Source of the DNA: Sulfurimonadaceae bacterium
GTDB lineage: Bacteria; Campylobacterota; Campylobacteria; Campylobacterales; Sulfurimonadaceae
Direction of reading: 5' to 3'
Length of the DNA: 36,291 nucleotides
NCBI GenBank assembly: GCA_041562555.1
Contig: JBFEXS010000007.1
Location: 1-36,291, forward strand
Made by a program: the position numbers and the translations under genes. Positions 13,502 to 36,049 of this stretch are shown piece after piece (within the stretch, counting starts at the first letter, position 1; the number at the start of each line of letters is the position of its first letter). Below the pieces are notes generated by a model. That model did no database searches, had not been told where the DNA came from, and was given only the letters and a program-made list of their open reading frames with translations.

Positions 13502-13864
13502 ATGACAACAGAACTTGCATTGGCCTCAGGCACGATTATCTTTCTTTTGTTCTTTATTCCCTTTATGATCCATCTGAGCCGTAAACTCGGATACAGACAT
13601 AGCGAGGGGAAAGCTAAGAACGAGGTATATGAGAGCGGTGTTCGCTTTATTGTCAAAGACAGTTTCGAACGATTTAATGTGAAGTACTATCTCGTTGCCA
13701 TCTTGTTCATTCTTTTCGATGTAGAGACCCTGTTTATGTTTCCTTGGGCAGTTAATCTAAGAGACCTTGGCTATTTTGGTCTTTTTGAGATGTTCACTTT
13801 TATGTTACTGTTACTTGCCGGGCTCGTCTATATCTATAAAAAAGGAGCCCTTAAATGGGAGTAG
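13502..13864 (+). CDS. nuoA: NADH-quinone oxidoreductase subunit A
   Basis: [22 protein letters not shown] and KKGALKW. Confidence 0.95.
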
Positions 13865-14364
13865 AGCTCTTAGGGGATGCCGTAGTGACAACGCGCCTGG
13901 ATGAAGCAGTCAACTGGGCTAGAGAATCTTCCCTGTGGCCCTTTGTCTTTGGAACTGCCTGTTGTGCTATCGAATTCATGTCTACCGCCTCCAGCAAACA
14001 TGACATTTCCCGTTTCGGTGCCGAAGTCGTACGCTTCTCTCCCCGACAGGCAGATCTACTTATCGTTGCAGGGACGATCTCCTACAAACAGGCACCTATC
14101 TTGAAACAGATATATGATCAGATGCCCGAGCCTAAATGGGTGATTTCCATGGGTGCCTGTGCTTGTTCAGGAGGGTTTTACGACAATTACACGACGCTTC
14201 AGGGTATCGATGAGATCATCCCCGTAGATGTATATGTCGCTGGTTGTCCTCCCCGCCCAGAATCGGTATTGGATGCGCTAATGGTCATACAGGAGAGCCT
14301 GAAAGACGAATCCCTCTCACAAGAAAGAAAACGTGACTTTGTAGGTAGGCTGGATAATGATTAA
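13855..14364 (+). CDS. nuoB: NADH-quinone oxidoreductase subunit B
   Basis: [23 protein letters not shown] and GCPPRPE (N2 ligands). Confidence 0.96.
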
Positions 14365-16051
14365 GCGCATGCGTGAAACCTTTAAAAAAGCAGAGTTCAT
14401 CTCCAAATCTTCTACACTTCTTTTAGATGAACAGGAGATTTTCAAGGCAGTCCAAAACTGTTTCACCTTTGGAGGGACCTACCTTTTAGACATCACGGTC
14501 ATCGATTATTTGGATTATATCCATCAGCAGCCATCACGATTTGCCATCGCTTATATCATACGACACAAAGATTTCAAAGAGAAGATCATACTCAAGGCTT
14601 TTTTAAGCCAAGAAAGGTGCCAAAGCATCTGCAGTATCTATAAAAGTGCCGACTGGCTAGAAAGAGAGTGTTATGATCAATATGGCATTCATTTTGAAGG
14701 CCATCCAAATCTCAAACGCGTGCTCAACCATTCTCAATTTAAAGGGCATCCCCTCCGCAAGGATTATCCGACGACAAAAGGACAGCTGTGTACCGAGACG
14801 GAAGACCTCATGCCGGAGATGAATGCCCGTCTTTTGGAAATGGGACTTGTGACACAAGACAACAATGGCATCTACAGTGAACCCAGCAGGGATCTGATGT
14901 TTATCAACATCGGTCCTTCTCATCCGGCCACCCATGGTACTATCCGAAACTTTTGTGCCATGGATGGTGAGACGGTTATTGCCAATGTGACCGAGATAGG
15001 TTATCTGCACAGAGGCTTTGAGAAGTCATGTGAAAACCATACCTACAATCAGATCATCCCTTATACCGACCGGCTGGACTATTGCTCAGCTACGACCAAC
15101 AATATCGCCTTTGCCAAGAGTGTCGAAGAGATGCTCGGTATTTCTCTTCCTGATCGGGCCATTGCTATCCGTGTGTTAGTCATGGAGCTCTCACGTATCA
15201 TCAATCACCTCGTCTGCCTGGCAGCGCAACTGGTCGATATGGGCGCGCTTACCAACTACTGGTACCTTTACAATCCTCGAGAATCGGCCTATACCTTCTT
15301 CTCCAAACTCACCGGTGCACGCCTGACTAATTCCTACATGCGCATCGGTGGGATGAGTTACGACCTGTATGAAGGGTACGAGAGTGATCTTAGACAGATT
15401 ATCAAAGAGATAGAAGAGGGAGTCTCCACGAGCCTGAGTCTGATAGAGCACAACCGTATCTTTCAAGACCGTACTCAGAACATCTGTGCCGTATCTGCTG
15501 ATGAAGCAATTTCCAGAGGGCTTTCCGGTCCAAACCTACGTGCTTCGGGTGTCAATTATGATATGCGTACTGCACAGCCTTATTACCTGTATAAAGACTT
15601 GGACTTTGATGTGGTGCTCGGATCAGTAGGCGATATCTATGATCGGATTATGGTCCGCTTTGAAGAGATAAACCAGAGCCTTCGTATCATGAAACAGCTC
15701 CTTGGGAATATCCCAGATGGCAAAATCTGCGTTGATGATGCGTCCATTATCTTGCCTGAAAAAGAGAAAGTCTATGGTAGTATAGAGGGAGTAATGAATC
15801 AGTTCAAGCTCATCTATGAAGGAGTCAAAGTACCCGCACAGGAGTACTACAGTTCTATCGAAGCCACTAACGGAGAACTTGGATTTTATATTGTCTCAAA
15901 CGGATCAGGATACCCACACAAGGTTAAGGTACGAGCACCAAGTTTTCTAGCTATGTCAGCCTATACCTCGATGGTCGAAGGCAGCATGCTGGCTGACGCG
16001 ATCTTGAACCTTGGGAGTATCAATATCATTGCAGGAGAGATGGACCGATGA
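14357..16051 (+). CDS. nuoCD: NADH-quinone oxidoreductase fused subunit C/D
   Basis: NuoC motifs WLERE and GHPLRKDYP are in the same frame as NuoD motifs [23 protein letters not shown] and the GEMDR terminus. Confidence 0.94.
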
Positions 16052-16518
16052 GTTTTTGTTTTGATGAAGCCAACGAAAAAGCATTTAATGCCCTGCTTCC
16101 ACGATATCCCCATCCAAAATCCCTGGTTCTTCCAAGCCTATGGATGGTACAGTATCAAAAGGGGTATATATCATCTGAAGCGATGGATTATCTCGCACAC
16201 AAGTTGGATGTCCCCAAGGCCCATCTCTATTCTGTTGCGACCTTTTATACGATGTTCCATCTTGAACCTATCCCTCCTTATCATATCCAGGTGTGCAAGA
16301 CACTTTCATGCGAACTGTGTGGCAAGGCAGAAATCATCAAGACTATCGAAGAAGAGACCGGTCTAAAAGTCAATGAGAGTAATGCTCACTTCAAACTTTC
16401 TGAAGTCGAGTGCCTCGGTGCTTGCGGAGGTGCACCGATGTTGGCCCTCAATGAAAAGTATTATGAGAACCTGACTCCCGAATCGACCAGACAACTGCTG
16501 CAAAGGTGTATGAAATGA
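16048..16518 (+). CDS. nuoE: NADH-quinone oxidoreductase subunit E
   Basis: [14 protein letters not shown] and CLGAC (N1a [2Fe-2S] ligands). Confidence 0.93.
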
Positions 16519-17780
16519 TACAGAAGATCGTAAGCAGGCACTTTGACATAAAGGGCTTTCATATGCTCAGTGTCGCTAAGGAGCATGGTGCCTATAGCAG
16601 ACTGGAGGAAGCTTTTGCAAAGAAACCCTATGAACTTGAAGCGGAGGTCTCAAAAAGCGGGCTGCGAGGCAAAGGTGGAGGCGGAGCGCCGACAGGAGCC
16701 AAATGGTGCTTACTCTCAAGCAGCGATGACCCCACCTATCTTATCGTCAATGCCGATGAGAGTGAGCCGGGTACCTTCAAAGACAGACAGATACTTGAGT
16801 TTGACCCGCACCTGCTTATTGAAGGGATCATCCTCACCTGCTACGCCATCGGTGCCCATGATGCCTATATCTATATCCGTGGAGAGTACAAGTTTTTTGC
16901 CGATCGTCTTAATGAAGCCATTGCCGAAGCCTATACCGAAGGGTTGATTGGAAAAAGGGTTAAGAGTTTTGACTATCGCGTAGATATTACGGTACACCGC
17001 GGAGCAGGTGCTTATATCTGCGGAGAGAAGTCTGCGCTCATCGAATCTCTGGAGGGTAATCGTGGTCATCCGCGTCTCAAGCCCCATATTCCATCTCCTG
17101 AATACTTTTTCAACAAACCGGCTCTGGTCAACAATGTAGAGACTATCGCTTCCATTCCTTTTATCATCTATGAAGGTGCCGATGCCTATCGTGCGTATGG
17201 AACAGAAAAAAGCCCCGGCACCCTTCTCTTTGGCCTCAGTGGGCATATTAACAACTCCGGTATTTATGAGCTGGCCTTCGGATCCTCCATGCAGGAGTTT
17301 ATTGATACCATCGGCGGAGGCGTCAAGCAGGGGAAAAAACTTAAGGCCGTCATCCCCGGAGGTGCTTCTACGCCGGTATTGACAGCAGACGAAGTCAAAA
17401 CTGCCAAGCTTGATTATGAATCCATGAGAGCTATAGGTTCTGCTTTGGGTACAGGGGGTATGATTGTCATGGATGAAGACACCTGTATGGTCTCTGCCCT
17501 AAAAAACCTTCTGGCCTTTTATCATCATGAGTCCTGTGGACAATGTACCCCCTGTAGAGAAGGCACTGCCTGGGTAGACGGGATCCTTGAGAACATCTTG
17601 CAAGCAAAGGGAAAACTTGATGACCTTGATCTGCTCAGTGATATATCCAAGACGATGAACGGCAAGACAATATGCGTCTTCGCACCGGCAGTCGCTATGG
17701 TCATCGACGGTTTTATCTCACGCTTTAGGGATGAGTTTGAAACCTATATCCAGAACACCAAAGGAGCAGAACATGCCTGA
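16515..17780 (+). CDS. nuoF: NADH-quinone oxidoreductase subunit F (FMN, N3) with an atypical nucleotide pocket
   Basis: GLRGKGGGG, NADESEPGTFKDR, GAGAYICGE, NNVET and ESCGQCTPCREG...C. ATGA overlap with the nuoE stop. Confidence 0.93.
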   Translation: MIQKIVSRHFDIKGFHMLSVAKEHGAYSRLEEAFAKKPYELEAEVSKSGLRGKGGGGAPTGAKWCLLSSSDDPTYLIVNADESEPGTFKDRQILEFDPHLLIEGIILTCYAIGAHDAYIYIRGEYKFFADRLNEAIAEAYTEGLIGKRVKSFDYRVDITVHRGAGAYICGEKSALIESLEGNRGHPRLKPHIPSPEYFFNKPALVNNVETIASIPFIIYEGADAYRAYGTEKSPGTLLFGLSGHINNSGIYELAFGSSMQEFIDTIGGGVKQGKKLKAVIPGGASTPVLTADEVKTAKLDYESMRAIGSALGTGGMIVMDEDTCMVSALKNLLAFYHHESCGQCTPCREGTAWVDGILENILQAKGKLDDLDLLSDISKTMNGKTICVFAPAVAMVIDGFISRFRDEFETYIQNTKGAEHA

Positions 17781-19284
17781 AATGGTCACCTTTATCGTAG
17801 ATGATCAAAAGATTCAAGCTCCCGAGGGTGCTTTACTCCTTCCTGTACTGCTGAAGAATGGTATACATGTACCCCATTTTTGTTATCACGATGCTTTAGG
17901 ACCCGATGGGAACTGCCGTATGTGTATGGTATCTATCGAAGGACAAAAGCGTCCTCAAGTCGCCTGCGATACACCGATCAAAAAAGACATGGTTGTCAGT
18001 ACAAAAAATGAAGGTATTAATGATGTAAAACGTAAGATACTGGAGCTTGAGCTGCTTTCTCATCCTGTTGACTGTCCTATCTGTGATCAGGCCGGAGAAT
18101 GTAGTCTCCAGGATTACTATATGGAGTTTGGTCTGCATGCGTCCCGTCGTCCAAAGGAGCAGAAAAAGCATAAAGACAAAAAGCTTGACATCGGTAAAAA
18201 TATCATCCTGGATCAAGAGCGCTGTGTCCTGTGTGCACGGTGTACCCGTTTCACCCAGGAGATCACCCATACCAATGAGCTTGCCATCATCGGCCGTGGC
18301 AATGACGCCCGTGTCTCTACTCTCCCGGGTGAGGGGATGTACACCCCCTATGCAATGAACATTATCGACCTATGCCCGGTAGGCGCACTCACTTCAAAGG
18401 ATTTTCGTTTCAAACAACGGGTCTGGTTTATGCATTCAGCCAAGGGTATCTGTCACGGATGTGCCAAAGGATGCAACATCTATCTGGACCATAATCAAGA
18501 AAAATACAAGAGTGACACTCTCTATCGTTTTCGTCCACGTATCAATAGTAATATTAATGGTCACTTTATCTGTGATGAGGGAAGACTATCCTATAAAGAG
18601 GAGAATCTGGAGCGTTTGGACGGGTACTATCAACATAATAAACCTATCTCCAAAGAAGCTGCCTTAGCACATCTTCTTCATGTGTTGAACGAGTTCAAAC
18701 CTCTGCTTATAGTCTCTCCTTCCCTCTCTCTAGAAGAGCTTTGTGCCATCATGCTACTTGCTCAGCATTTCGAACTGCAGATCAATGCCTATGAAGATGG
18801 ATACTATGATGAGAACTTTGGAGATGATTGGTTGCGCCGAAATGACCGATCGGCGAATCTCGCCGGCGTCAAGAGACTGGGGATTGACTCTTCTACCTCA
18901 TCACTCATTAGCGCCTTGGATACAACAAAATTTATCATCAACTTCAATCATAAGTCCTTCATACACCCTACCCCTAGAGTACAAGGGTTTTTAGTGCATA
19001 AAAAAGAGATCCACATCGCCTCTCACACCTTTGACAACTGTAAACACAAAGAGCTCCTGATCCCAATAAACTCCTATAGTGAACATAAAGGAACGCTGAT
19101 CAATGCTGACAATATCCTTCAGCGATATGAAGCAGGTTTGTGTAATGAACGCGAAGGGATATTAACACTGATTCATGAGCTTGTCGCCTCGCCGAGCAGT
19201 GTGGAAAATATCTGGGAGGAATACCTACACGAGAGTTTCGGCTTTCATTATGAGGATATCCCCCCTGAAGGCAGGGAAATCTGA
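17773..19284 (+). CDS. nuoG: NADH-quinone oxidoreductase subunit G, short form (503 aa)
   Basis: FCYH...CRMC...AC (N1b), HPVDCPICDQAGEC (N5), CVLCARC...CP (N4) and CHGCAKGC...C (N7). AAGGAG RBS before ATG 17773. Confidence 0.92.
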   Translation: MPEMVTFIVDDQKIQAPEGALLLPVLLKNGIHVPHFCYHDALGPDGNCRMCMVSIEGQKRPQVACDTPIKKDMVVSTKNEGINDVKRKILELELLSHPVDCPICDQAGECSLQDYYMEFGLHASRRPKEQKKHKDKKLDIGKNIILDQERCVLCARCTRFTQEITHTNELAIIGRGNDARVSTLPGEGMYTPYAMNIIDLCPVGALTSKDFRFKQRVWFMHSAKGICHGCAKGCNIYLDHNQEKYKSDTLYRFRPRINSNINGHFICDEGRLSYKEENLERLDGYYQHNKPISKEAALAHLLHVLNEFKPLLIVSPSLSLEELCAIMLLAQHFELQINAYEDGYYDENFGDDWLRRNDRSANLAGVKRLGIDSSTSSLISALDTTKFIINFNHKSFIHPTPRVQGFLVHKKEIHIASHTFDNCKHKELLIPINSYSEHKGTLINADNILQRYEAGLCNEREGILTLIHELVASPSSVENIWEEYLHESFGFHYEDIPPEGREI

Positions 19285-20549
19285 TGCATAACTTCATGAT
19301 CCTTTTTCCTATTATACTGACTCTACTCTTCACACTTGCGACCATACCTCTGCTCGTGTGGATGGAAAGACGCGTCGCTGCTTTAATACAAGACAGACTG
19401 GGTCCTAACCGATGTAATATCAAGGGCGTACGCCTTGGAGGGCTGATACAACCTATTGCCGATATGTTAAAACTTCTCTTCAAAGAAGAGTTCTATCCAA
19501 AACATGTCAAACATCGTTTCTACTATATTTTGGCTCCGATGATCGTCTTCGCCTCTGCTTTTCTCTCTTTCATGGTCATCCCCTATGCCGACGACATCAC
19601 CCTGGGTGAGTATACCTATCACATTCAAGCACTTCCGATCGACATGGGTGTTCTTTGGGTCTTTGCCTTTGCCGGGCTTGGAGTCTATGGTATCATCATT
19701 GCCGGTTGGTCCAGTCATAACAAATACTCTATTTTGGGAGCCCTTCGCGCCTCTTCCCAGGTCATCTCCTATGAGATAGCTATGGGCCTCTCCATCGTCT
19801 CATTACTGATAACCTATGGTTCGATATCCCTTAATGAGATGGTGACCTATCAGGGAGGACTCCTCTTTGGATTTCTCCCTGCCTGGGGTATCATACTTCA
19901 ACCTCTCGCAGGGGTCATCTTTATCGTTACTGCCTTTGCAGAGAGCAATCGTGCTCCCTTTGATGCAGCCGAGGGCGAGAGTGAAATCGTAGCCGGCTAC
20001 CATACGGAATACTCTGCGATGAAGTTTGCCCTCTTTTTCATGGGCGAATATATTGCGATGTCTGCGGCAAGTGCACTTATCGTAACCCTTTTGTTTGGCG
20101 GATATCAGATCCCTTGGCTTAACACGCAAATCATGCGTGAGCATATGCCTTTGATCATCATGTCACTGATATTTCTGATCCCCTTGATCAGCTTAAGCTT
20201 TATCTCATGGATGAAGCACAATAACAGCTGTGATCCAAGCAGGCAAAAAGAGACCCATTACGCCACAATCATCATCACCCTGATTGTCATCATAATGGAA
20301 AGCTTTTTGTTTTATCTGCTCTCATCGGGCATGAATACGGAGCAGAATGCTCTTTTTGTGATGATCTTGCAGATCCTTAGCTTTGCCATCAAAGTGATGC
20401 TTATGAATTTTGTCTTCGTATGGGTACGCTGGACGTTTCCTCGTTTTAGATACGACCAGACCCAGCATCTGGGGTGGAGGATATTACTACCGCTTTCCCT
20501 GCTGAATATCTTTATAACGGCTACAGTCGTCGTTGTCTTAGGAGTCTAA
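19284..20549 (+). CDS. nuoH: NADH-quinone oxidoreductase subunit H with internal insertion
   Basis: ERRV...QDRLGP, QPIADMLKLLFKE, ESNRAPFD, ESEIVAGYHTEYS and WVRWTFPRFRYDQ. Confidence 0.94.
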   Translation: MHNFMILFPIILTLLFTLATIPLLVWMERRVAALIQDRLGPNRCNIKGVRLGGLIQPIADMLKLLFKEEFYPKHVKHRFYYILAPMIVFASAFLSFMVIPYADDITLGEYTYHIQALPIDMGVLWVFAFAGLGVYGIIIAGWSSHNKYSILGALRASSQVISYEIAMGLSIVSLLITYGSISLNEMVTYQGGLLFGFLPAWGIILQPLAGVIFIVTAFAESNRAPFDAAEGESEIVAGYHTEYSAMKFALFFMGEYIAMSAASALIVTLLFGGYQIPWLNTQIMREHMPLIIMSLIFLIPLISLSFISWMKHNNSCDPSRQKETHYATIIITLIVIIMESFLFYLLSSGMNTEQNALFVMILQILSFAIKVMLMNFVFVWVRWTFPRFRYDQTQHLGWRILLPLSLLNIFITATVVVVLGV

Positions 20550-20550
20550 C

Positions 20551-21063
20551 ATGGGTATAAAAGTTGTTCCGAGATATGGAAACTCAATCAAAGACAAGAC
20601 CTATTTATGGGCTCTTTTCTCTGGGATGAAGGTCACCTTTACCAAGTTTACCCAGAATCTAAATGACACCAGCTGTATTCCGACCTGCGAATACCCGGAA
20701 TCCCAACCTCTGGATATCACCGATCGATACCGTGGCATGCATAGACTAACCCATAGAGACGATGGCAGTGTACGGTGTGTTGCCTGTTTTATGTGTGCTA
20801 CAGCCTGTCCTGCCGATTGCATTTTCATCGAAGCCGAAGAGCGTCTGGATGGCATAGATGAAAAACAGCCTGCACGCTTTGACATTGATCTTCTGGAGTG
20901 TATCTTTTGCGGATATTGCGTCGAGGCTTGTCCCTGCGATGCCATTCGTATGGATACGGGTATCTTTTCTATTGTTGCCAAAAATAGAGAAGACTTTATC
21001 GTTAACAAGGACAAACTCCTCGAAAACCGCGGTGCCTTCGGTGAGGAGGACTCCCGTGCTTAG
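20551..21063 (+). CDS. nuoI: NADH-quinone oxidoreductase subunit I
   Basis: CVACFMCATACP and CIFCGYCVEACP (two [4Fe-4S] clusters). Confidence 0.95.
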   Translation: MGIKVVPRYGNSIKDKTYLWALFSGMKVTFTKFTQNLNDTSCIPTCEYPESQPLDITDRYRGMHRLTHRDDGSVRCVACFMCATACPADCIFIEAEERLDGIDEKQPARFDIDLLECIFCGYCVEACPCDAIRMDTGIFSIVAKNREDFIVNKDKLLENRGAFGEEDSRA

Positions 21064-21559
21064 CACTGTTATATTCTTTATTCTGGCAATAACGGCATTA
21101 GGCTCTGCCTTCGGAATGATCTATTTCCGTCAGCCCATCAACTCTGCTCTAAGTATGATCGTCACTCTGCTGAGCATCGCAGGTCTCTTTGCCTTGCTTG
21201 GAGGAAGTTTTCTTTTCCTGGTACAGATCATCATTTATGCTGGAGCTGTCGTCACTTTGATCTTGTTTATCATCATGTTCTTGAATATCAAGGATGAGAA
21301 CCTCCCACACGAACCCAATAAAGCCAAATGGGTACTCTTCATGAGTCTCCTGATATCTCCCTTTAGCGCTTTTTTGATCTTGGCAATCAATCGGGTTGAT
21401 TTCGCACCTTTACGTCTTGGAAACTTTGGAGATATCAAGGCCTTGGGACTTCTCCTTTTTGACAAGTGGGTTTTACCCTTCGAGATGATCTCTATTCTTT
21501 TGCTGATCTCTCTTATCGGTGTGGTCATCCTGGCAAAAAAGGAGCATGGCCATGATTAA
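21056..21559 (+). CDS. nuoJ: NADH-quinone oxidoreductase subunit J
   Basis: QIIIYAGAVVTLILFIIM and LPFEMISILLL. GTG start at 21056 behind GAGGAGG. Confidence 0.92.
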   Translation: MLSTVIFFILAITALGSAFGMIYFRQPINSALSMIVTLLSIAGLFALLGGSFLFLVQIIIYAGAVVTLILFIIMFLNIKDENLPHEPNKAKWVLFMSLLISPFSAFLILAINRVDFAPLRLGNFGDIKALGLLLFDKWVLPFEMISILLLISLIGVVILAKKEHGHD

Positions 21560-21869
21560 TATTGGATATTTTATGATCCTCTCCATCCTGCTTTTCTCTA
21601 TCGGTATTGTAGGTGTCATCAGTCGGCGGAATATCTTCGTCATGTATATGTCTATGGAACTTATGCTCAATGCCGTCAACTTGGCCCTTGTAGCCCTTTC
21701 ACACCATTTCCTGGACCTCAATGCCCAGGTCATGGCTATTATGATCATTGCCATTGCTGCCGCTGAGGCATCCATATTCTTGGCTCTTTTTGTGATGCTC
21801 TTTAAAAATGCACGTTCTTTGGATGCCAACTTTTTTGAACTGCTTAAACAGGACAAACACCATGTTTGA
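21552..21869 (+). CDS. nuoK: NADH-quinone oxidoreductase subunit K
   Basis: RRN...MSMELMLNAVNL and AAAEA. AAGGAG RBS. Confidence 0.94.
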   Translation: MINIGYFMILSILLFSIGIVGVISRRNIFVMYMSMELMLNAVNLALVALSHHFLDLNAQVMAIMIIAIAAAEASIFLALFVMLFKNARSLDANFFELLKQDKHHV

Positions 21870-23748
21870 GACTAATCTTCTCGGTTGGATTGTCGGTGCT
21901 GTCTTCTTCTCTTCACTATCCATCATGCTTATTTCTGTGTTTTCCAAATACAATAATGATGTTCCTAAGAAGATCTATACGATTATCGGCCTGGGCGGAC
22001 CGGCTGTCAGTCTGTTCCTCTCCATGATACTGATCATTGAGTTTATCATACAGCAGACCCCTTTTAGCTATAGTCCTTATATCTGGCTGGACATCGAAGG
22101 CTTTCTCCTAGAAGCACGCTTGAGACTCGATGCTCTATCTGCTGCTATGCTCACTTTTGTCAGCTTTGTAGGCTTTATCATCCATCTATATGCCCACGTT
22201 TATATGAAAGAAGACGAAGGATATGCACGTTTTTTTGCCTGGTTCAACCTCTTTATGGCATCTATGTTCCTGTTGATCCTGACTGACAATCCCTATATGC
22301 TCTTTATCGGCTGGGAAGGTGTAGGGCTCTGTTCTTATCTGCTCATCAGTTTCTATTTTGACAATGAGAGGAATGTCCAAGCAGGGAACAAAGCTTTTAT
22401 CCTAAACCGTATTGGAGATTTTGGGTTTATCTCAGGATTGGCACTGCTGTTTGTCTCTATCGGACATATGGGCTTGGACTTCAACAGCCTCGAGACCAAC
22501 ATCCATCTTATCTCCTCTGAGAGACTTAATCTTATTGCTTTTTTACTCTTTGTCGGGGCCATGGGTAAATCTGCACAGATACCGCTGTATATTTGGCTTC
22601 CTGATGCCATGGCGGGACCGACCCCGGTCTCCGCACTTATCCATGCAGCGACGATGGTCACTGCCGGAGTCTATTTGATAGCACGTTTTCATTTTCTCTA
22701 TGCCATTACTGAAGAAATCGGTCTTTTTATTGCTTATACAGGTGCTTCCTCTGCCCTACTTGCGGCACTCATCGCGATGCGTCAGGATGATATCAAAAAG
22801 ATACTCGCTTATTCGACTATGTCCCAACTGGGATATATGTTTATGGCCGTTGGTCTAGGTGCTTACTCTTACGGTATCTTTCATGTTTTTACCCACGCTT
22901 TTTTCAAAGCCCTGTTGTTTATGGGGGCGGGAGCTATCATCCTGGCCCTGCATCATGAACAAAACATCAAAAAGATGGGAGGCCTTAAAAACAAGATGCC
23001 TTTTGTCTACAGTATGATGCTTATTGCCACCCTCGCGATATCGGGTATACCTCCTTTTAGCGGATTTTTCTCCAAAGATGCAATATTGAACCATCTTTTC
23101 GCTTCGGAGCATTACCTTATCTTCACGATAGCCCTTCTTACCGCCGGTCTGACCAGCTATTATATGTTCAGACTTCTGATACTTGTATTTATCTCACCGA
23201 CGCAGAAGGAGCATCACCTCATCGATCAAGGAAGAATGATCAAGCTTACACTCTTCATACTCGGCATAGGAGCACTCTTTTCAGGCTTTATCAACCTACC
23301 TGTGCTCTTTGGAGGGAATGAGACCTATTCCCTTTGGTTAAACCTGCCTGATATCCGCGTAGGCGTTTCTCATACTACGGAATTTCTACTCTTAGGGACA
23401 AATATTCTTGTCGCTTCAATAGGCATCTATTTTGCCTATGCGCATTACAAAGAGTCTTCCAAGGATCCTTCTTTAGGTTTCTTGGACAATCCGATCAAAC
23501 ATAAGTTCTACATCGATGAAATCTTTTATACCATTTTTGTCAGACCCCTTAACTGGGCAAGTATCTTTATTGTCAGAAAAATGGATGAACAGTTTATCGA
23601 TGGGCTGATACATAAACTCAGCTCCGGATACCAAAAGCTTTCTTACTATAGCGATTACATACAAAACGGGAATGTGCGTTATTATGCCCTGTATATAAGT
23701 TGCGGTATAGTCGGCATCTTCGTTTATCTCTTTATTGGAGGATATTAA
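21862..23748 (+). CDS. nuoL: NADH-quinone oxidoreductase subunit L
   Basis: FIGWEGVGLCSYLLI, NRIGD, GKSAQIPL, WLPDAMAGPTPVSALIHAATMV and HAFFKALLF. Confidence 0.95.
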   Translation: MFETNLLGWIVGAVFFSSLSIMLISVFSKYNNDVPKKIYTIIGLGGPAVSLFLSMILIIEFIIQQTPFSYSPYIWLDIEGFLLEARLRLDALSAAMLTFVSFVGFIIHLYAHVYMKEDEGYARFFAWFNLFMASMFLLILTDNPYMLFIGWEGVGLCSYLLISFYFDNERNVQAGNKAFILNRIGDFGFISGLALLFVSIGHMGLDFNSLETNIHLISSERLNLIAFLLFVGAMGKSAQIPLYIWLPDAMAGPTPVSALIHAATMVTAGVYLIARFHFLYAITEEIGLFIAYTGASSALLAALIAMRQDDIKKILAYSTMSQLGYMFMAVGLGAYSYGIFHVFTHAFFKALLFMGAGAIILALHHEQNIKKMGGLKNKMPFVYSMMLIATLAISGIPPFSGFFSKDAILNHLFASEHYLIFTIALLTAGLTSYYMFRLLILVFISPTQKEHHLIDQGRMIKLTLFILGIGALFSGFINLPVLFGGNETYSLWLNLPDIRVGVSHTTEFLLLGTNILVASIGIYFAYAHYKESSKDPSLGFLDNPIKHKFYIDEIFYTIFVRPLNWASIFIVRKMDEQFIDGLIHKLSSGYQKLSYYSDYIQNGNVRYYALYISCGIVGIFVYLFIGGY

Positions 23749-23749
23749 G

Positions 23750-25216
23750 ATGGAAAACATCCTTTCCCTGTTGATATTCATCCCTATCCTCTCGGCAGTC
23801 TTCTTGTATCTGCTGCCCCTTAATGTACGCTATATCCGATACGCAAGTTTTGGGGTCACTCTTTTTACCACCTCCTTAAGCCTATGGATGTATGCTCACT
23901 TTGAGGTAAGCGAGCAGATGCAGTTCGTCGAACAGTATGACTGGATCAAGGCCTATGGTATCACCTACCATCTTGGAATAGACGGCGTCTCCCTGATTAT
24001 TGTGATGATGACCAATCTTATCATGCCCCTGCTCTACCTCTCCTTCTGGCACCTGGACAGAAAAGGGTATTGGCTTAACCTGCTGATCGTCCATGGAGGA
24101 CTGACCGGTTCAGCACTTTCACTAGATCTCATCCTCTTTTATCTCTTCTGGGAGACCATGCTGCTTCCGATCTTTTTTTTGATCGGACTGTTTGGACGGG
24201 AGAATAAGAACTTTATGAGTATGAAGTTCACCCTGTATACCATCTTCGGTTCCCTTATTATGCTTGTTGCGATCTTGTATCTTGGCTTTTCCTCCTATGA
24301 AAAGACACAGGTATGGGATTTTTCTCTCGCCTACATTCACACCTTGCATATTGAACCATCCCATGCCTTATTGCTCTTTGCCGCCTTTGTATTTGCCTTT
24401 TCCATAAAGATACCGCTCTTTCCTTTTCATACCTGGCTGCCTCAGACCTATCGAGCGGCTCCAATAGGAGCCATAGTGGTCATGTCCGCACTGATGGCAA
24501 AGCTGGGAGTGTATGCGATCTGGAGGTTTGTTTTCACCCTCTTTGAAGATGTCGCCTATGAATTGAGCAATTTCTTTGTCTATCTCGGACTCTTCGGCAT
24601 GCTCTATTTCGGGATCGCTGCGATGCAGCAGCGTGAGCTCAAAAAACTTTTTGCCTACTCCTCTGCCTCACACCTTTCATTGGTCATCATGGGCATCTTC
24701 GCTTTTAACTATTATGCCCACTTGGGAGCCTTTTATATGATCGCATCTCATGCCCTATCTTCAGCAGCCCTGTTCATTATGCTGGGAATGATCTATAAAC
24801 GTACTCAGAGCCTGCATATCCATACCCTCGGAGGTATCGTCCATCAGGCACCGATCTTTTCGATCTTTTTTGCGTTCTTTGCCTTGAGTATTGTAGGGAT
24901 CCCCCTTACCGGTGGTTTTGTCTCCGAACTATTGCTGATAATCGGTGCCTTTAACTACAGCCTTGCTGCCGGTTTTATTGCGGCAACCACCCTTCTGGTC
25001 GCGATCTTATTCATTTTCAAAGTGATGCAAAAAGTCATCTTTGGGAAGAAGAAACGTCAAACATTTGCCGAATTGCATCCCTATGAGCTTTTATCTCTCA
25101 TTCCCCTGGCCCTACTCATCTTGGCAATGGGTGTTTTTCCCTCATATTTTTTGCAAAAATTAAAACCGACGGCCGGTGAACACACCTATCAGGAGCGTAT
25201 GCATGCTAAGCAGTAA
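23750..25216 (+). CDS. nuoM: NADH-quinone oxidoreductase subunit M
   Basis: LGIDG, FYLFWE, IKIPLFPFHTWLP, AYSS-SH and GFVSE. GGAGG RBS. Confidence 0.95.
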   Translation: MENILSLLIFIPILSAVFLYLLPLNVRYIRYASFGVTLFTTSLSLWMYAHFEVSEQMQFVEQYDWIKAYGITYHLGIDGVSLIIVMMTNLIMPLLYLSFWHLDRKGYWLNLLIVHGGLTGSALSLDLILFYLFWETMLLPIFFLIGLFGRENKNFMSMKFTLYTIFGSLIMLVAILYLGFSSYEKTQVWDFSLAYIHTLHIEPSHALLLFAAFVFAFSIKIPLFPFHTWLPQTYRAAPIGAIVVMSALMAKLGVYAIWRFVFTLFEDVAYELSNFFVYLGLFGMLYFGIAAMQQRELKKLFAYSSASHLSLVIMGIFAFNYYAHLGAFYMIASHALSSAALFIMLGMIYKRTQSLHIHTLGGIVHQAPIFSIFFAFFALSIVGIPLTGGFVSELLLIIGAFNYSLAAGFIAATTLLVAILFIFKVMQKVIFGKKKRQTFAELHPYELLSLIPLALLILAMGVFPSYFLQKLKPTAGEHTYQERMHAKQ

Positions 25217-26681
25217 TATTATTATCTCTCTTCTCATCATTGGGGGAAGTGCTGTCATCATGATGCTTGTCGCTGCTTTTACCCGTCTGAGCAATACGGT
25301 TCTATCTTACCTCACACTGCTGATCATACTTTCTGCGATCTACTTTCAGATCAGTTATCTTGGCGAGCTTTTTGCCATCGATATCGCTCCTGAGCTTTTC
25401 AATCATATGCTGCGCTTTGATACCTTTGCCGCATTATTCAATATGATCTTCCTAGTCGGCAGCTTCTTGATGATCGCAACGGCCCGGGCCTTTATGCAGG
25501 CGACCAAGTTTTATATGGCAGAGACCTTTTCCTTACTCCTGTTTGCTCTGTTTTCGATGATGCTTCTTTCTATGGCCAATGAACTTCTTACAGCCTTTAT
25601 CGCCTTGGAATCCGCTTCCGTCTCCGTCTATATCCTTGTAGGGCTCAATCGTTACAATGTCAAAGCATCGGAAGCACTCTTTAAGTATCTATTACTTGGC
25701 TCCTTCAGCGGTGCATTTTTTCTCTTGGGCATCGCCTTTGTCTATGCCCAAGTGGGATCGACCCATATCGGTGATATCAACACCTATCTGAGTACCCATG
25801 AACAGTATGAGCTTGTATTGATCGGAGGAGTGCTGATGATGATCACCATCATGTTTAAGATCTCCGCCGTTCCTTTTCAAGCATGGACCCTGGATGTGTA
25901 TGATGGAGCTTCTCTGCCTATTACCGCCTTTATGGCAGGAACATTTAAGATCGCTATTTTTTCCATTGCCCTGCGTATCTTTTTGGTTGATTATCAGGCC
26001 CTTAACCCCATCTTTGATCCGCTCCTGATATTTGCTGCAGTCATAACCCTTGTCGGAGGTTCCCTACTCACCCTGGCGCAACAGAACATCAAACGTATGC
26101 TCGCTGCATCTTCGATTGTACATAGTGGTTATATGCTTGTTGCACTCGCTGCGACGGGAGCAATGCACACCTCTGCCGCCCCTTCAATCATTTTCTATCT
26201 CGTGGCTTATTTTCTTTCTGCCATAGGCGCATTCGGTATACTGAGCTATCTCTCCCATTGGGATACGGAACGCACGACTTATGAGGATTTCAAGGGCTTT
26301 GCCCATGAGCGCCCTATCCTTGCCGCAATGATGTCCATCTTCATGCTCTCTTTCGCCGGCTTTCCTTCGACCATCGGTTTTCTTGGCAAGTTTTATATCT
26401 TCACTGCTGCTATTGAGTCAGGTCTTACCTGGTTGGCGCTTATAGGTGTACTCGCTGCCTTTGTATCCATCTATTACTACTTCAAGGTGATCGCGATGAT
26501 GTATTTCTATCCGCAGAAGGAGCGTTACAACCTCGCCTTCAGTTTTACACCTGTCGTCATCGGTATCGTCGCACTGTCAGTGCTCTGGGGTGGAATCGGA
26601 ACAGGACTGATCTCTTATCTTCCAGGGGCGAATGTGATCATAGAGACGGCACAAGACTCTATCGCGTCATTATTTTTATAG
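25203..26681 (+). CDS. nuoN: NADH-quinone oxidoreductase subunit N
   Basis: EALFKY, FKISAVPFQAWTLDVYDG, NIKRMLA and SFAGFP...GFLGKF. AGGAG RBS. Confidence 0.94.
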   Translation: MLSSNIIISLLIIGGSAVIMMLVAAFTRLSNTVLSYLTLLIILSAIYFQISYLGELFAIDIAPELFNHMLRFDTFAALFNMIFLVGSFLMIATARAFMQATKFYMAETFSLLLFALFSMMLLSMANELLTAFIALESASVSVYILVGLNRYNVKASEALFKYLLLGSFSGAFFLLGIAFVYAQVGSTHIGDINTYLSTHEQYELVLIGGVLMMITIMFKISAVPFQAWTLDVYDGASLPITAFMAGTFKIAIFSIALRIFLVDYQALNPIFDPLLIFAAVITLVGGSLLTLAQQNIKRMLAASSIVHSGYMLVALAATGAMHTSAAPSIIFYLVAYFLSAIGAFGILSYLSHWDTERTTYEDFKGFAHERPILAAMMSIFMLSFAGFPSTIGFLGKFYIFTAAIESGLTWLALIGVLAAFVSIYYYFKVIAMMYFYPQKERYNLAFSFTPVVIGIVALSVLWGGIGTGLISYLPGANVIIETAQDSIASLFL

Positions 26682-26717: not shown

Positions 26718-27119
26718 TTACCAACCGCGAACGCGTGAATGGCATGAGTTACATTGGCGCATAAGAAGGGATGCACTTTCCAAGGCTGCATCAAAATCTT
26801 TGGCCTCCATTGCAGTATTCAGTTCATTCGAGTATTCCATGATACGACGAAGACTCTTCTCACCAAACTTGTATGCATAAGCCGTATCCTCAGGAAGATA
26901 GCTCTTTAGATCACCCTTTTTATGGATGTTATCGACCCCCTCTTGAATGTACTTTACACCTGCGTTAATGTTGTCAGGATAGTTGTATAAAAGACCATTC
27001 ATGATCAGACCCATCCCATCCGCCATATGTTTCATATCTGATATACGCTCTTTTTGTTCTCCGGCGGATATTGATGTCAAAAAACTCAGGCTGATTAACA
27101 GTACCACTATCTTTTTCAT
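26718..27119 (-). CDS. Periplasmic monoheme cytochrome c, class II (c'/c556-like)
   Basis: Sec signal peptide, helical composition and a single CNSCH near the C-terminus. Confidence 0.75.
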   Translation of the reverse strand: MKKIVVLLISLSFLTSISAGEQKERISDMKHMADGMGLIMNGLLYNYPDNINAGVKYIQEGVDNIHKKGDLKSYLPEDTAYAYKFGEKSLRRIMEYSNELNTAMEAKDFDAALESASLLMRQCNSCHSRVRGW

Positions 27120-27139
27120 GTTCTTTCCTTTTATGTATG

Positions 27140-27868
27140 TTAGTAAGAGACTACTTCTTTGGTATATTCACTTATGGCCACCGTTTGTGCACTAAAAGAG
27201 ACAATCTTCTTTGCCTTGCGTTTTCCACCCCATTGATCTTTAAATTCTGACTTGAAGCTTTTAAAGTACTCGTGGAACTTGTCTTGTCCCAGTACGGCCA
27301 CTGCCCAAAGCGTATCGTCTTCAACATGTTCGAGCACAATTGATGCAAGAGGCTGTGTTGCCGGGCCGCTCAGATTTACTGCACCGCGTTTGGGATCAAA
27401 AGCGGAAAGGTGAGAACCGCAGACGATCACTCCCCCTTCACTGTAAGCCATCGTCTTGCCTGTCTTAGGGATATAGGAGATAAAACTGTCTTCTTTGTTC
27501 GTATGGGTAAGCTGATGTGGACATATTGCCGTATAGGCGACAATACTATTGTTCTTACCTACACCACCCTTCCATATATATTCAGTCCCGTCTTCGCTTT
27601 TGAGTTTCACTTTCTGTTCCGTTTTTTCAGGAAGGTTAAGTAAAAAACACGGAACTGCTACCTGAGGATAATTAAAGACATACGTCTTTTCTGTCTCAAG
27701 ATCAGAAGCCTTGACCGGATTCCCATCCGCGTCTACCAACTGTACCTTTTCATATGCCTTATACAGCCGTCCATCATCTGCATACAGTGTCTGTCCTATC
27801 ATTGAAGGGCAAACTGCCACGACTGCAGCACCTGTTCCAACAACACGTAAAAAATCACGCCTTTGCAT
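27140..27868 (-). CDS. Tat-exported Rieske [2Fe-2S] protein
   Basis: QRRDFLR Tat motif, AICPHQ and VCGSHLSAFD ligand boxes, GPA-QPL loop, AAGGAG RBS. Confidence 0.85.
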   Translation of the reverse strand: MQRRDFLRVVGTGAAVVAVCPSMIGQTLYADDGRLYKAYEKVQLVDADGNPVKASDLETEKTYVFNYPQVAVPCFLLNLPEKTEQKVKLKSEDGTEYIWKGGVGKNNSIVAYTAICPHQLTHTNKEDSFISYIPKTGKTMAYSEGGVIVCGSHLSAFDPKRGAVNLSGPATQPLASIVLEHVEDDTLWAVAVLGQDKFHEYFKSFKSEFKDQWGGKRKAKKIVSFSAQTVAISEYTKEVVSY

Positions 27869-28197: not shown

Positions 28198-28283
28198 AGT
28201 TAACTTTATCAAAACAGAACTTGCAATAATTACTTTTTTTGATGTATCATTGTTGCAATCAAAATTTAATACGGAGTAATCAC

Positions 28284-29612
28284 ATGGCAATTTCAAGACG
28301 TAGTGTATTTAAAATCACAGGTGTTGCAGCAGCGGCAACGGCATTATCAGGAACATCCCTTCAAGCTTCTCCTGCCCATACAATCGGTAAACATCAGGTC
28401 GTCATCATCGGCGGTGGTTTTGGCGGCCTAACCGTTGCAAAAGAACTGAAGAAGATCGATCCGAAATTCGACATCTTGATTATCGAAAAAAATGACACCT
28501 TTATGTCATGCCCTTTTTCCAATACAAACCTTGGAAAACTCAAAGGTGTTAATCTCGGTACTTTTGTATATGACTACGATCAGGCCATTGAGAAGAACGG
28601 ATACGCTATGCTTCACTCCGAAGTGACATCCATTGATCGTAAGTCAAAGACAGTAACGACAGCAAAAGGTACGATTGCTTATGACTACCTTGTACTCTCC
28701 CCGGGTATTGAATACAACTATAGAGCGCAATTCCCAGACTGGTCACAAGAGAAGATCGAGCATATCCGCCGTGTTGCACCGGCAGCGTTGATCCCGGGAA
28801 GAGAGCACGTTGTCCTTGAGCGCCAACTTCAAAATATGGAAGATGGAGATGTGATCATTACGGTTCCTGCCGGAAAATTCAGATGCCCTCCTGCACCATT
28901 TGAGCGTGCTTGTATGATCGCTGCTTACATGAAAAAAGAGGAAATACAAGGTAAGGTCATCATCTTGAATGAGACTGGAAAGATCGCCAAAGGTGCAGCC
29001 TTTAAAGAAGCATGGGAAGAGCTGTACGGCGATTATATCGTACATCATGGCGGAGCACGTGTGACAGATGTCGATCCGGACAAGAAAACCGTCTCTTATA
29101 CGATGGATGGCGATAAAGAGACGGCACAATATGAAGTACTGAATCTTATCGCATACAATAAAGCAAACCCGGTTATAGAGATGGCCGGTCTTGAGACAAG
29201 CCAGGACAACTTTGGTAAGGTTCTTATGAATGGGTGTTCATTCCAGACGAAAACCGATGCCAATGTCTATGCAGTCGGTGATGTTGTCGGCCATGCTATC
29301 CCGCCTTCAGGGCAGACAGCGGTATGGGCAGCTAAGCAGTGTGCAGCTGAGCTGGGTCACAGACTTCATGGAAAATCCTATACCTTACCGGTAAAAACAG
29401 CTACGATCAAGGCGGGTAATGTCTGCTACTCTATGGTAGGTGATCAACCTGAAGAGGGCATCATGGTAACCCATGACTTTTCATGGAACGGTACAGTGAT
29501 CAAAGGTGCAGGACATGTACCAAAAGGTCCGGATGGTAAATTCAGATCCAAAACAACAGCGAAAGCGACCCGTGAATGGTTCCGCGGGATCATGGGTGAT
29601 CTTTTCGCCTAA
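28284..29612 (+). CDS. Flavocytochrome c sulfide dehydrogenase flavoprotein subunit (FccB/SoxF family)
   Basis: Tat motif SRRSVFK, Rossmann GGGFGG, SCPFSN (FAD-attachment Cys position), and FRCPPAPFER plus NVCYS (active-site Cys pair). ATG 28284 lies behind GGAG. Confidence 0.88.
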   Translation: MAISRRSVFKITGVAAAATALSGTSLQASPAHTIGKHQVVIIGGGFGGLTVAKELKKIDPKFDILIIEKNDTFMSCPFSNTNLGKLKGVNLGTFVYDYDQAIEKNGYAMLHSEVTSIDRKSKTVTTAKGTIAYDYLVLSPGIEYNYRAQFPDWSQEKIEHIRRVAPAALIPGREHVVLERQLQNMEDGDVIITVPAGKFRCPPAPFERACMIAAYMKKEEIQGKVIILNETGKIAKGAAFKEAWEELYGDYIVHHGGARVTDVDPDKKTVSYTMDGDKETAQYEVLNLIAYNKANPVIEMAGLETSQDNFGKVLMNGCSFQTKTDANVYAVGDVVGHAIPPSGQTAVWAAKQCAAELGHRLHGKSYTLPVKTATIKAGNVCYSMVGDQPEEGIMVTHDFSWNGTVIKGAGHVPKGPDGKFRSKTTAKATREWFRGIMGDLFA

Positions 29613-32113: not shown

Positions 32114-32500
32114 TTAAAATTCGAGGTAAGGGTTTGCGACAAATTTTTCAGTTATCGTCAGATAATCCAGATTGATTTTCAGCTTGATAACACCACCGCT
32201 CATCTCAATAGGTGCTAAAAGCGTGATGAAATCATAGGTCTGCCATTCGATCAGTTTGTGGTTGAGCTCTTTGTTGATGACTGCCACCGGCTCGCCCAAA
32301 ATCTCATCTATCAATGATGCCACAAACCGCGCAGAATCCGCATTGCACTCTTTACCAAACATTTTACAGACCTTTTCCATAGGAAATTCCAGTTCAGGGT
32401 CTCTATATTCACTACCTTGGTAAGTGTGTAAAATAGCATTTGCCAAACGTACTGCATCATCGCTTGGCCATGCGATCTCTATATCTTTTTGCGCTTCTAT
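32114..32500 (-). CDS. Hypothetical protein (start ATA 32500 or TTG 32446)
   Basis: The frame stays open upstream of the called TTG. A GAGGAG RBS lies 6 nt before an in-frame ATA at 32500. Confidence 0.65.
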   Translation of the reverse strand: MEAQKDIEIAWPSDDAVRLANAILHTYQGSEYRDPELEFPMEKVCKMFGKECNADSARFVASLIDEILGEPVAVINKELNHKLIEWQTYDFITLLAPIEMSGGVIKLKINLDYLTITEKFVANPYLEF

Positions 32501-32551
32501 ATCCGGCTCCTCATCCTCGTATTAGTGATAAAATAAATTATATCACAATAA

Positions 32552-32851
32552 CTATTTACTATGAAACAACTCATAAAAAAGTGCATTCAAATCAAAATGA
32601 CAACGGATCTCATGAGTAAAAACGGAAGGGAGATACTCCAAAAAGAAGTAACCTAACTTGATCATAGGATAAAAGAGGATCACCGACCAGTAAAACTCTT
32701 CGTAGGTAAAATGCTCTTTTAACCACTTTAGGGCGAACTTTCCGCCACTGACTGCAGCAGTCACTTCAAATGCCATGATAAATCCCATAACCAGGTAGGT
32801 CAGGATAAACGCATAGGCAATATAGATAAACCATAAGAATAAACCTGTCAT
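32552..32851 (-). CDS. Hypothetical small membrane protein
   Basis: AAGGAG RBS before ATG 32851 (MTGLFLWF...). Two hydrophobic segments. Confidence 0.7.
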   Translation of the reverse strand: MTGLFLWFIYIAYAFILTYLVMGFIMAFEVTAAVSGGKFALKWLKEHFTYEEFYWSVILFYPMIKLGYFFLEYLPSVFTHEIRCHFDLNALFYELFHSK

Positions 32852-32946
32852 ATCGGACTCCTTAATCAAGTCGTCTACTACTATTGTACTACGACATTGG
32901 TGCAAGTCATCTTAGAAGTAAAAATTAATTGAAGTGTTTAGGGGAC

Positions 32947-35486: not shown

Positions 35487-35837
35487 TTAGAGCTTTAATC
35501 CAAACTTTTCAAGAATGTAGATAACACTATAATACGCCATGATCGTCAATGCGATCGAGATGAACATACTTGGATAAAAACCCATGCCTTTTTTGATCAG
35601 AATCGGGAAACTGATAAACAGTGTCATAGATGGGGCAATCAACCAGACAATACGGTTAGAGAATGCTACAGCGCTTTCACTGTTACCCGTATCAATATAC
35701 ATCCATGTCATTGCCAATATAGACACCAACGGTATTGCTGCTAGAAGTGCTCCTGCCAAGCTGCTGAGTTTGGCTATTTCAGAGATCAAAACGATTAAAA
35801 ATGTTGTAATAAGCAGTTTGATGACATAATACGTCAT
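35487..35837 (-). CDS. DUF3147-like small membrane protein
   Basis: IKLLIT...LISEIAK...GALLAAIPLVS.LAM.W.Y pattern with 4 TM segments. AAGGA before ATG 35837. Confidence 0.72.
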   Translation of the reverse strand: MTYYVIKLLITTFLIVLISEIAKLSSLAGALLAAIPLVSILAMTWMYIDTGNSESAVAFSNRIVWLIAPSMTLFISFPILIKKGMGFYPSMFISIALTIMAYYSVIYILEKFGLKL

Positions 35838-36049
35838 ATCAGTCCTTTGTCCTTTTTTAAAATCGTAATATAGCATCTATCAGCTATTCTGTAAACCAAA
35901 ATCTCACTGATCAAAGGCGCTTATTGGACTCTTAGAGTATAAGAATGTATGAAAGCTATAAAGTATATGGACAAAATAAGGTAAGCCAACAAAGAGTTAT
36001 ACAAAATTATTGATAGTAGTTAAGAAACTCAGTAATAGAAAATAAAAGA

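Follow-up and report, generated by a model that had tools for sequence, protein, structure and literature searches.

A rebuilt nucleotide pocket in NuoF of a Campylobacterota clade, and a complex I that may accept NADPH

Complex I is defined as an NADH dehydrogenase (NADH, reduced nicotinamide adenine dinucleotide). We describe here NuoF, its flavin mononucleotide (FMN) subunit, as encoded on a 36,291-nucleotide stretch of DNA from a Sulfurimonadaceae bacterium (assembly GCA_041562555.1, contig JBFEXS010000007.1); this whole stretch is called the window below. The window holds a complete complex I operon on the + strand (13502-26681), of the 14-subunit type, with the gene order nuoA, B, CD (fused), E, F, G, H, I, J, K, L, M, N (Table 1). 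Within this complete nuoA-N operon nuoF lies between nuoE and nuoG, and it overlaps nuoG. The part of NuoF that in canonical enzymes receives the adenosine end of NADH has been replaced, and the replacements are shared by a whole clade of Campylobacterota, which raises the possibility that the enzyme takes NADPH, the phosphorylated form.

The protein belongs to the NuoF family. It scores above the cut-offs of the family domains (PF01512, 151.8 bits against 31.2; PF10589, 95.7 against 23.5; PF22461, 31.2 against 27) and of NF010120 (464.2 against 389). With canonical NuoF/Nqo1/NDUFV1 proteins (Thermus 2FUG/3IAM, Escherichia coli, Paracoccus, Aquifex NuoEF) it shares the domains, the FMN motifs, the cysteines of iron-sulfur cluster N3, the place in the operon, 42-44% identity in structure matches, and the fold. 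The AlphaFold2 (AF2) model (predicted local distance difference test, pLDDT, 83.9; predicted template-modelling score, pTM, 0.87) matches solved NuoF chains with a template-modelling (TM) score of 0.92 and a root-mean-square deviation of about 2.1-2.2 Å, and as modelled the fold is preserved. It differs from the canonical proteins at Thermus positions 65, 68, 70, 78, 185, 204, 205, 207 and 210, all of which are replaced, and in its TIGR01959 score of 523, under the equivalog cut-off of 558.65.

Residue numbers follow a phmmer search against all PDB chains, in which Thermus Nqo1 (2fug_1) aligns without gaps across the pocket segments. The window residues K56, G59, A61, K66, L69, E174, K175, K192, H194 and I195 correspond to Thermus R65, A68, F70, K75, F78, E184, E185, K202, P204 and F205, respectively. 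The Gly-rich loop reads GKGGGGA in place of GRGGAGF. A preliminary description of the window, made from the letters alone, had read the three motifs GKGGGGAPTGAKWCL, YICGEK and PRLKPHI (the last being amino acids (aa) 189-195, nucleotides 17070-17090) and had derived F70A, F78L, E185K and F205I by manual alignment; the translation contains all three, the ungapped alignment gives exactly these four substitutions, and the pocket positions do not shift. It overlooked R65K, A68G, P204H, A207S and G210Y. Thermus E185 is the glutamate that hydrogen-bonds the adenosine ribose and keeps out a 2'-phosphate. Phenylalanines 70, 78 and 205 are reported by Berrisford and Sazanov (2009) to surround the adenine in the Thermus NADH site. 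Both marks of an NADH-specific complex I flavoprotein, the Glu at Thermus 185 (E. coli 183) and the aromatic triad F70/F78/F205, are thus missing from the window protein, where Lys stands at the first and Ala, Leu and Ile at the triad.

The remainder of the active site is intact, as the preliminary description had also held for K75, NADESEP, E184, NNVET and the N3 cysteines; translation and an 18-sequence alignment bear this out. K75, K202 and E184 are unchanged (window K66, K192 and E174), and the FMN motifs (K75, NADESEP, Y180/G183/E184, NNVET) and the four N3 cysteines are invariant in 18/18 sequences spanning 54-100% identity, in line with its further claim that the flavin site works. To judge from these residues, the window NuoF is ordinary at its FMN site, on the nicotinamide side and at cluster N3.

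Table 1. Complex I genes of the window and motifs within nuoF (window positions; replacements in Thermus numbering).
Feature	Position	Strand	Matches and remarks
nuoA	13502..13864	+	PF00507, E 6e-31
nuoB	13855..14364	+	PF01058; NF005012 230 bits, above cut-off
nuoCD, fused, 564 aa	14357..16051	+	PF00329 and PF00346 within a single open reading frame (ORF); TIGR01962 459.9 bits
nuoE, 156 aa, unremarkable	16048..16518	+	PF01257, E 9e-47
nuoF ORF	16506..17780	+	PF01512, PF22461, PF10589
nuoF, Gly-rich loop segment GKGGGGAPTGAKWCL, aa 55-69	16668..16712	+	R65K, A68G, F70A, K75 kept, F78L
nuoF, NADESEP FMN-site motif, aa 82-88, intact	16749..16769	+	N82, D84, E85, E87, P88 invariant in 18-sequence alignment
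nuoF, YICGEK, aa 170-175	17013..17030	+	E184 kept, E185K; AAG at 17028-17030
nuoF, PRLKPHIPSPEY	17070..17105	+	K202 kept; P204H, F205I, A207S, G210Y
nuoF, NNVET motif, aa 209-213, intact	17130..17144	+	Translation; 18-sequence alignment
nuoF, N3 cluster cysteines C344, C347, C350, C390, intact	17535..17675	+	Invariant in 18-sequence alignment; PF10589, E 1.5e-27
nuoG, short form, 517 aa	17731..19284	+	Fer2_4, NADH-G_4Fe-4S_3, Fer4_Nqo3; TIGR01973 covers profile positions 2-328 of 606 only
nuoH, long form, 421 aa	19284..20549	+	PF00146, E 6e-101, match split in two stretches
nuoI	20551..21063	+	Fer4_7; NF004538
nuoJ ORF	20858..21559	+	PF00499 matches aa 83-225
nuoK ORF	21519..21869	+	PF00420
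nuoL ORF	21808..23748	+	NF005141 647.6 bits, above cut-off
nuoM	23735..25216	+	TIGR01972 427 bits
nuoN	25176..26681	+	TIGR01770 340 bits

Orthologues at ≥54% identity (at least 54%) were found in 54/401 Campylobacterota genomes. Residues were counted by column on alignments of a clade set and an outgroup. The clade set has 45 rows, from 43 of these 54 genomes and two named loci, the other 11 genomes being left out. The outgroup has 78 complex I NuoFs of other phyla, including Bacteroidota, Actinomycetota, Pseudomonadota, Bdellovibrionota, Balneolota and Ignavibacteriota; its loci came from a related-locus search with very conserved peptides of the clade alignment, the matches being mostly to other phyla. 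At the seven R/A/F/F/E/P/F pocket positions outgroup conservation is 97-100%. R65 (R in 76/78 outgroup sequences) is Lys in 45/45 clade rows, A68 (A in 77/78) is Gly in 45/45, and E185 (E in 77/78) is Lys in 45/45. F70 (F in 77/78) has become Ala in 36 rows and Gly in 9, and F78 (F in 77/78) Leu in 35, Asn in 8, Tyr in 1 and Met in 1. P204, present in 78/78 of the outgroup, is His in 30 clade rows, Lys in 10, Gln in 4 and Ala in 1, and F205 (F in 77, Y in 1) is Gly, Gln, Asn, Arg, Ile and others, with no aromatic residue in any of the 45.

The nearest 120 database homologues (64-100% identity; those named come from Arcobacter sp., Sulfurimonas sp., Sulfuricurvum, Hydrogenimonas and Poseidonibacter, which puts the window's genome in Campylobacterota), taken together with the query, give the same result. 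The loop G-K-G-G-G-G-A, K66, L69 and E174 each appear in 121/121, window position 175 is Lys in 120 and Arg in 1, position 194 is mainly His (77), Gln (20), Lys (13) or Ala (7), and position 195 is polar and variable, with one Phe (P0060). Among 150 diverse representatives of the NuoF superfamily, drawn from clusters at 50% identity, position 185 is Glu in 138 and Lys in none; the query is the sole Lys. The preliminary description had asked whether orthologues might show relaxed selection and not conserved replacement. The substitutions are kept across a monophyletic clade, so relaxed drift does not account for them; as read from these sequences the pocket pattern is more than chance, a signature of the lineage and not drift within a single genome.

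The changes are also concentrated. A clade-wide replacement was scored where a position ≥90% conserved in the outgroup retained its outgroup residue in ≤5% of the clade. Eleven of the 103 outgroup-conserved positions in NuoF qualify (Thermus 58, 65, 68, 70, 78, 185, 204, 205, 207, 210 and one C-terminal position), and the same test in NuoE gives 1/18. Ten of the 11 are confined to the Gly-rich loop region, the GEE motif and the PRLKPPFPA..G loop, all three of them short segments (hypergeometric P 1.6e-5, with segments delimited post hoc). New conserved residues have appeared there: A207 is Glu in 44/45 clade rows (the window itself has Ser), and G210 is aromatic in 45/45 (W 35, F 8, Y 2). Because of these gains (K185, H/K/Q204, E207, W/F/Y210) we regard the pocket as rebuilt, not eroded.

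Per-family counts, which leave out the window's own genome, show where the orthologue occurs: 20/23 genomes of family f7, 18/19 of f11, 3/20 of f4, 1/1 of f14, 10/158 of f3 (all in genus g18, 10 of its 13), and 1/34 of f1, the family of the window, in addition to the window itself. Family f7 includes Arcobacteraceae, since the NuoF of a named Arcobacteraceae record is identical to that of one f7 genome. The clade spans Arcobacteraceae, where it is commonest, a second family, one Campylobacteraceae genus and scattered Sulfurimonadaceae. A maximum-likelihood tree joins the 45 remodelled rows in one clade (Shimodaira-Hasegawa-like approximate likelihood ratio test, SH-aLRT, 100). Its nearest neighbours are two uncultured "delta proteobacterium" metagenome-assembled genomes (MAGs), a MAG of candidate division FCPU426 and one unclassified MAG, and 4/4 have canonical pockets. 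One clade with canonical sister sequences means one origin and later retention: on this tree the pocket was rebuilt once, in the ancestor of the Campylobacterota clade, and has been kept since.

Within the NuoF fold there is a natural precedent for losing the glutamate. HydABC of Thermoanaerobacter kivui, an [FeFe]-hydrogenase that bifurcates electrons, is NADP+-specific according to two papers (PMC8578170, PMC10021017), and the legend of Fig. 4 in the second has the NADP+ held by the Gly-rich loop, Phe205 and Arg340. In the PDB-search alignment its HydB chain (8a6t_B) reads ...FVCGESTAL...PRVRPPR..., and by count on the printed coordinates Ser320 stands at the E185 position, Arg340 at that of F205 and Phe205 at that of F70. 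Four other HydB/HoxF/NfnB chains in the same search output keep E and F/Y. Taken with the Fig. 4 contacts, the alignment places the discriminating changes of the sole structurally characterised natural NADP+ member at E185 and F205. The window NuoF (K175) has lost the same glutamate as this NADP(H)-using type, and both proteins are NuoF-family FMN subunits that have naturally lost the Glu of Thermus position 185 and the Phe of position 205. They differ in that these two positions of HydB are Ser and Arg, that GRGGAGF and its F70 equivalent are retained, and that HydB works in a soluble hydrogenase, not in complex I. The Campylobacterota clade instead places positive charge at 185 (Lys) and 204 (His/Lys/Gln), without a consistent base at 205, where T. 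kivui has Arg340, and has given up F70 and F78 as well.

Laboratory variants point the same way. E. coli NuoF changed at E183 reportedly uses NADPH (Morina and colleagues, 2011). For the soluble hydrogenase (SH) of Cupriavidus necator, an E341A/S342R variant of HoxF is described in a review as switched in selectivity to NADP+ (PMC11563201). The common lesson is that losing this Glu, or placing a base beside it, admits NADP(H). These are point mutants with the remaining pocket unaltered, whereas the Campylobacterota change is natural, multi-residue and clade-wide.

Two other sets of NuoF relatives deserve mention as observations in their own right. A HydB-like group among the diverse representatives (P0181, P0184, P0215, P0258; also P0172, P0167, P0197) carries FVCGEST with PR.KY[VI]HT or PR.RPPR[LT]; the P0181/P0184/P0215/P0258-type proteins have lost E185 and have F205 replaced, as in T. 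kivui HydB. HoxF-like proteins of other Campylobacterota genomes (L046-L052; about 40% identity to NuoF) read FVCGEAT and PRQKPPHL in 6/7 (E185 to A, F205 to H), the remaining 1/7 being canonical. In genome G213, the one whose context was read, the gene belongs to a HoxEFUYH-type NAD(P)-linked [NiFe]-hydrogenase cluster (L135:5905-10662), and its HoxF also lacks the NAD-type residues. From these motifs the phylum has a second NuoF-family module without the discriminating Glu.

We consider that the complex I of the window accepts NADPH, alongside NADH or in preference to it, with a probability of about one half. The adenosine/ribose sub-pocket for NADH was rebuilt by E185 to Lys, by F70, F78 and F205 to small or polar residues and by P204 to His, Lys or Gln, and the loop that follows gained a Glu at 207 and an aromatic residue at 210. 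A Lys in place of Glu beside the ribose 2' position, together with His/Lys/Gln for P204, is in the light of the natural and engineered precedents a change of the sort that should admit a 2'-phosphate. The 2'-phosphate of NADPH would then face Lys185 and probably residue 204, with the adenine lying on the aromatic side chain newly placed at 210. Electrons would take the usual path from FMN to N3 and along the Fe-S chain to menaquinone, with proton pumping coupled to their passage. The binding of NADPH, the roles of single residues and the direction of operation we infer from sequence and analogy. The preliminary description had proposed that cofactor specificity has changed and that the Lys could suit the NADPH 2'-phosphate; T. 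kivui HydB, altered at E185 and F205, and the C. necator variant make the proposal plausible, with the use of NADPH itself an extrapolation from them. The stronger statement, that the enzyme is a natural proton-pumping NADPH:menaquinone oxidoreductase and that a whole Campylobacterota lineage has switched its NuoF from NADH to NADPH, we hold as a tentative suggestion only.

Several observations weigh against NADPH acceptance, or limit it. T. kivui HydB is NADP+-specific with GRGGAGF and the F70 equivalent kept, and since it needed no such loss, F70A/G, F78L/N, R65K and A68G are not explained by NADPH use alone. The negative charge of A207E in the loop could disfavour a phosphate, and a lysine can also hydrogen-bond the ribose hydroxyls of NADH. 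It is in exactly the remodelled loops that the AF2 model is least confident, with block means of 66-76 and values under 50 at residues 57-59. The correspondence of C. necator SH E341 with Thermus E185 is our presumption, taken from the GEE(S/T) motif and not from an alignment. Genomes G009 and G137 of the Arcobacteraceae genus g16 have one NuoD match each and encode the E2 of a 2-oxoacid dehydrogenase, and Arcobacter butzleri has a pyruvate dehydrogenase complex (PMC2147049). NADH is therefore formed there and needs an oxidiser, which makes strict NADPH specificity less likely.

The foremost alternative is that the enzyme is still NADH-specific and that only its adenosine pocket has been re-engineered, with stacking on W/F/Y210 and Lys185 bonded to the ribose, the substrate unchanged and perhaps the affinity or the release of NAD+ tuned. 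The new aromatic at 210 could restore stacking, and every nicotinamide-side and FMN residue is intact. Both g16 genomes examined carry the NADH-producing 2-oxoacid dehydrogenase E2 and no other complex I, and the literature, from genome analysis only, treats the Arcobacter genes as canonical: a 2019 review of Campylobacterota respiration states that A. butzleri "contains the canonical nuoEF genes" and lists NADH as donor (PMC6682613), and the genome paper does likewise (PMC2147049). Against this, E185 is otherwise kept almost throughout the outgroup (77/78) and among the diverse representatives (138/150), the characterised enzyme with natural loss of E185, T. kivui HydB, uses NADP+, and unless the ligand has changed it is difficult to account for ten coordinated changes in a pocket that is otherwise frozen. 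Exchange of an acid for a base beside the ribose 2' position is moreover the classic switch from NAD to NADP. We consider an unchanged substrate unlikely.

The genome that carries the window bears on a second alternative, in which the opened pocket admits flavodoxin, ferredoxin or another non-pyridine-nucleotide reductant to the FMN, as an analogue of the flavodoxin-dependent NuoX/NuoY complex I of Campylobacter jejuni. The assembly (2.1 Mb, 137 contigs) is 89% complete, and at that completeness it has no second PF01512 gene and no match for PntB. It does have a second complex I cluster (genome G000, contig C78, L004:521-8626, minus strand), of NuoX type, with nuoA, B, C and D, a gene for a 74-aa protein, a 490-aa paralogue resembling the C-terminal half of NuoG (no Pfam match), an 829-aa NuoG and nuoH. 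Unlike the Sulfurimonas cluster of a 2019 preprint (bioRxiv 10.1101/717884), it is without a GltD/NfnB-like flavoprotein. The NuoX-type cluster makes a protein-donor role for the window enzyme less needed; a second complex I for protein donors and no PntB match form a context that fits NADPH acceptance. A search for ATP-citrate lyase (PF16114) gave no match, though the positive control also matched nowhere. An E1_dh match was rejected as evidence of pyruvate dehydrogenase, being weak, partial and inside a 611-aa ORF.

In two genera the remodelled enzyme mostly stands alone. Judged by genomes with just one NuoD match (E≤1e-40), no other complex I accompanies it in 8/9 genomes of g16 and in 9/10 of g18 (family f3). 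E2 is present in both g16 genomes examined; the two g18 genomes examined have POR/OOR-type enzymes and no E2 match, so that reduced flavodoxin or ferredoxin needs an outlet there. In g18 an NADP+ reductase of FqrB type, followed by a complex I that uses NADPH, could link these carriers to the chain; they could also donate directly. Replacement of three Phe by Ala/Gly, Leu/Asn and Gly/Gln would open the site for a direct donor. Yet the Gly-rich loop, K75, K202, E184 and NADESEP are all retained and invariant, the new conserved polar residues (K185, H204, E207) resemble a small-ligand site and not a docking surface, and the FqrB-type flavodoxin:NADP+ route to NADPH would serve g18 equally well. 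The known alternative input modules of complex I in the phylum (NuoX/NuoY, and the GltD/NfnB-like NuoF replacement of Sulfurimonas in the same preprint) share the theme of a complex I not fed by NADH; they put unrelated proteins in place of NuoE and NuoF, whereas the window keeps both and alters the nucleotide pocket alone. A non-pyridine-nucleotide partner, which the preliminary description had offered as its alternative, is weakened for the window genome by the NuoX-type cluster and stays alive for g18; overall we rate it improbable. That the nucleotide site has degenerated or binds with low affinity, selection having relaxed on a complex that is little used, is scarcely credible: position 205 does vary (G, Q, N, R, I, K, T and others), but replacing residues elsewhere in the pocket are invariant or nearly so over 54-100% identity (K65, G68 and K185 in 45/45, E207 in 44/45, an aromatic 210 in 45/45), all cofactor motifs are intact, and this is the only complex I in 17/19 genomes of two genera.

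On the direction of operation, gene order offers a hint in one family. In 20/20 rows of the Arcobacteraceae (f7) subclade, nuoF and nuoG are separated by a citrate synthase gene, for instance L055:8232-9575 (+; PF00285, E 9e-129), the other loci being L007, L010-L016, L018, L019, L021, L022, L025, L027-L030, L034 and L056. It is absent from the window and found in 0/11 other clade loci with 1.5 kb of downstream flank. Placement of citrate synthase inside the nuo operon suggests co-expression with an oxidative tricarboxylic acid cycle and hence forward operation in Arcobacteraceae. Reverse electron flow in a lithoautotroph, suggested in the preliminary description, finds neither support nor contradiction in the window genome, and the Arcobacteraceae arrangement points to forward, oxidative use there.

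Some gene models in the window need comment. The real start of nuoF is most likely the ATG at 16515, giving 421 aa, as read from the sequence. This codon and the nuoE stop overlap in the sequence ATGA, alignments with homologues begin at residue 3-7, and the consensus start of relatives is MxxKIVS; the database model (P0002) begins at Met20 and gives 405 aa. The longer form is the likely product in view of the alignment and the overlap. The true start of nuoJ is probably close to the end of nuoI, homology beginning at residue ~60-83. Short NuoG with long NuoH also occurs in loci with canonical NuoF (uncultured deltaproteobacterial MAGs, FCPU426), NuoH being 425-455 aa in relatives, and two loci with a canonical pocket, L107 and L111 (the latter from Bdellovibrio), likewise have NuoC and NuoD fused. 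We considered these three features as part of the novelty and rejected them as lineage traits, because they recur in canonical-pocket relatives. Downstream of the operon are a flavoprotein of the flavocytochrome c sulfide dehydrogenase type (28239-29612, +; FCSD_central, E 3e-32) and a protein of 789 aa that weakly matches multihaem cytochromes (32978-35347, -; Cytochrome_C7, MtrC/MtrF-like domain), a pair that is in keeping with sulfur oxidation as a lifestyle. No Pfam match at E≤1e-5 was obtained for five ORFs of 110-242 aa, at 26718-27868 (-), 32114-32905 (-) and 35487-35876 (-).

Searches of the literature, with supplements and most subscription journals outside their range, turned up no description of a remodelled NuoF pocket in Campylobacterota and no published preference between NADH and NADPH for any clade member. 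The field currently assumes that the clade enzymes are ordinary NADH dehydrogenases. A natural, clade-wide, targeted rebuild of the nucleotide pocket appears to be new, its biochemical meaning being read for now from sequence. Known natural exceptions to NADH as donor exchange the entire input module, Fpo taking F420H2, NDH-1 ferredoxin and NuoXY flavodoxin. Within the reach of our searches, the only NuoF-based complex I to use NADPH is the engineered E. coli mutant. If the clade enzymes use NADPH, they would be the first natural case. Central metabolism in Campylobacterota is largely ferredoxin/flavodoxin- and NADP-linked, and use of NADPH would explain how reducing power enters the respiratory chain of these bacteria, or how they obtain NADPH from that chain. 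Metabolic models in which NADH is the donor for Arcobacter-type bacteria by annotation alone would then be corrected as well. Were the switch complete, two genera with this enzyme as their sole complex I would respire on NADPH, or reduce NADP+ by reverse electron flow. The residue set of the clade offers a natural template for re-engineering cofactor specificity in NuoF-type modules such as those of hydrogenases and formate dehydrogenases. Should the enzymes instead prove NADH-specific, a supposedly essential Glu and Phe triad would be shown to be replaceable in this family.

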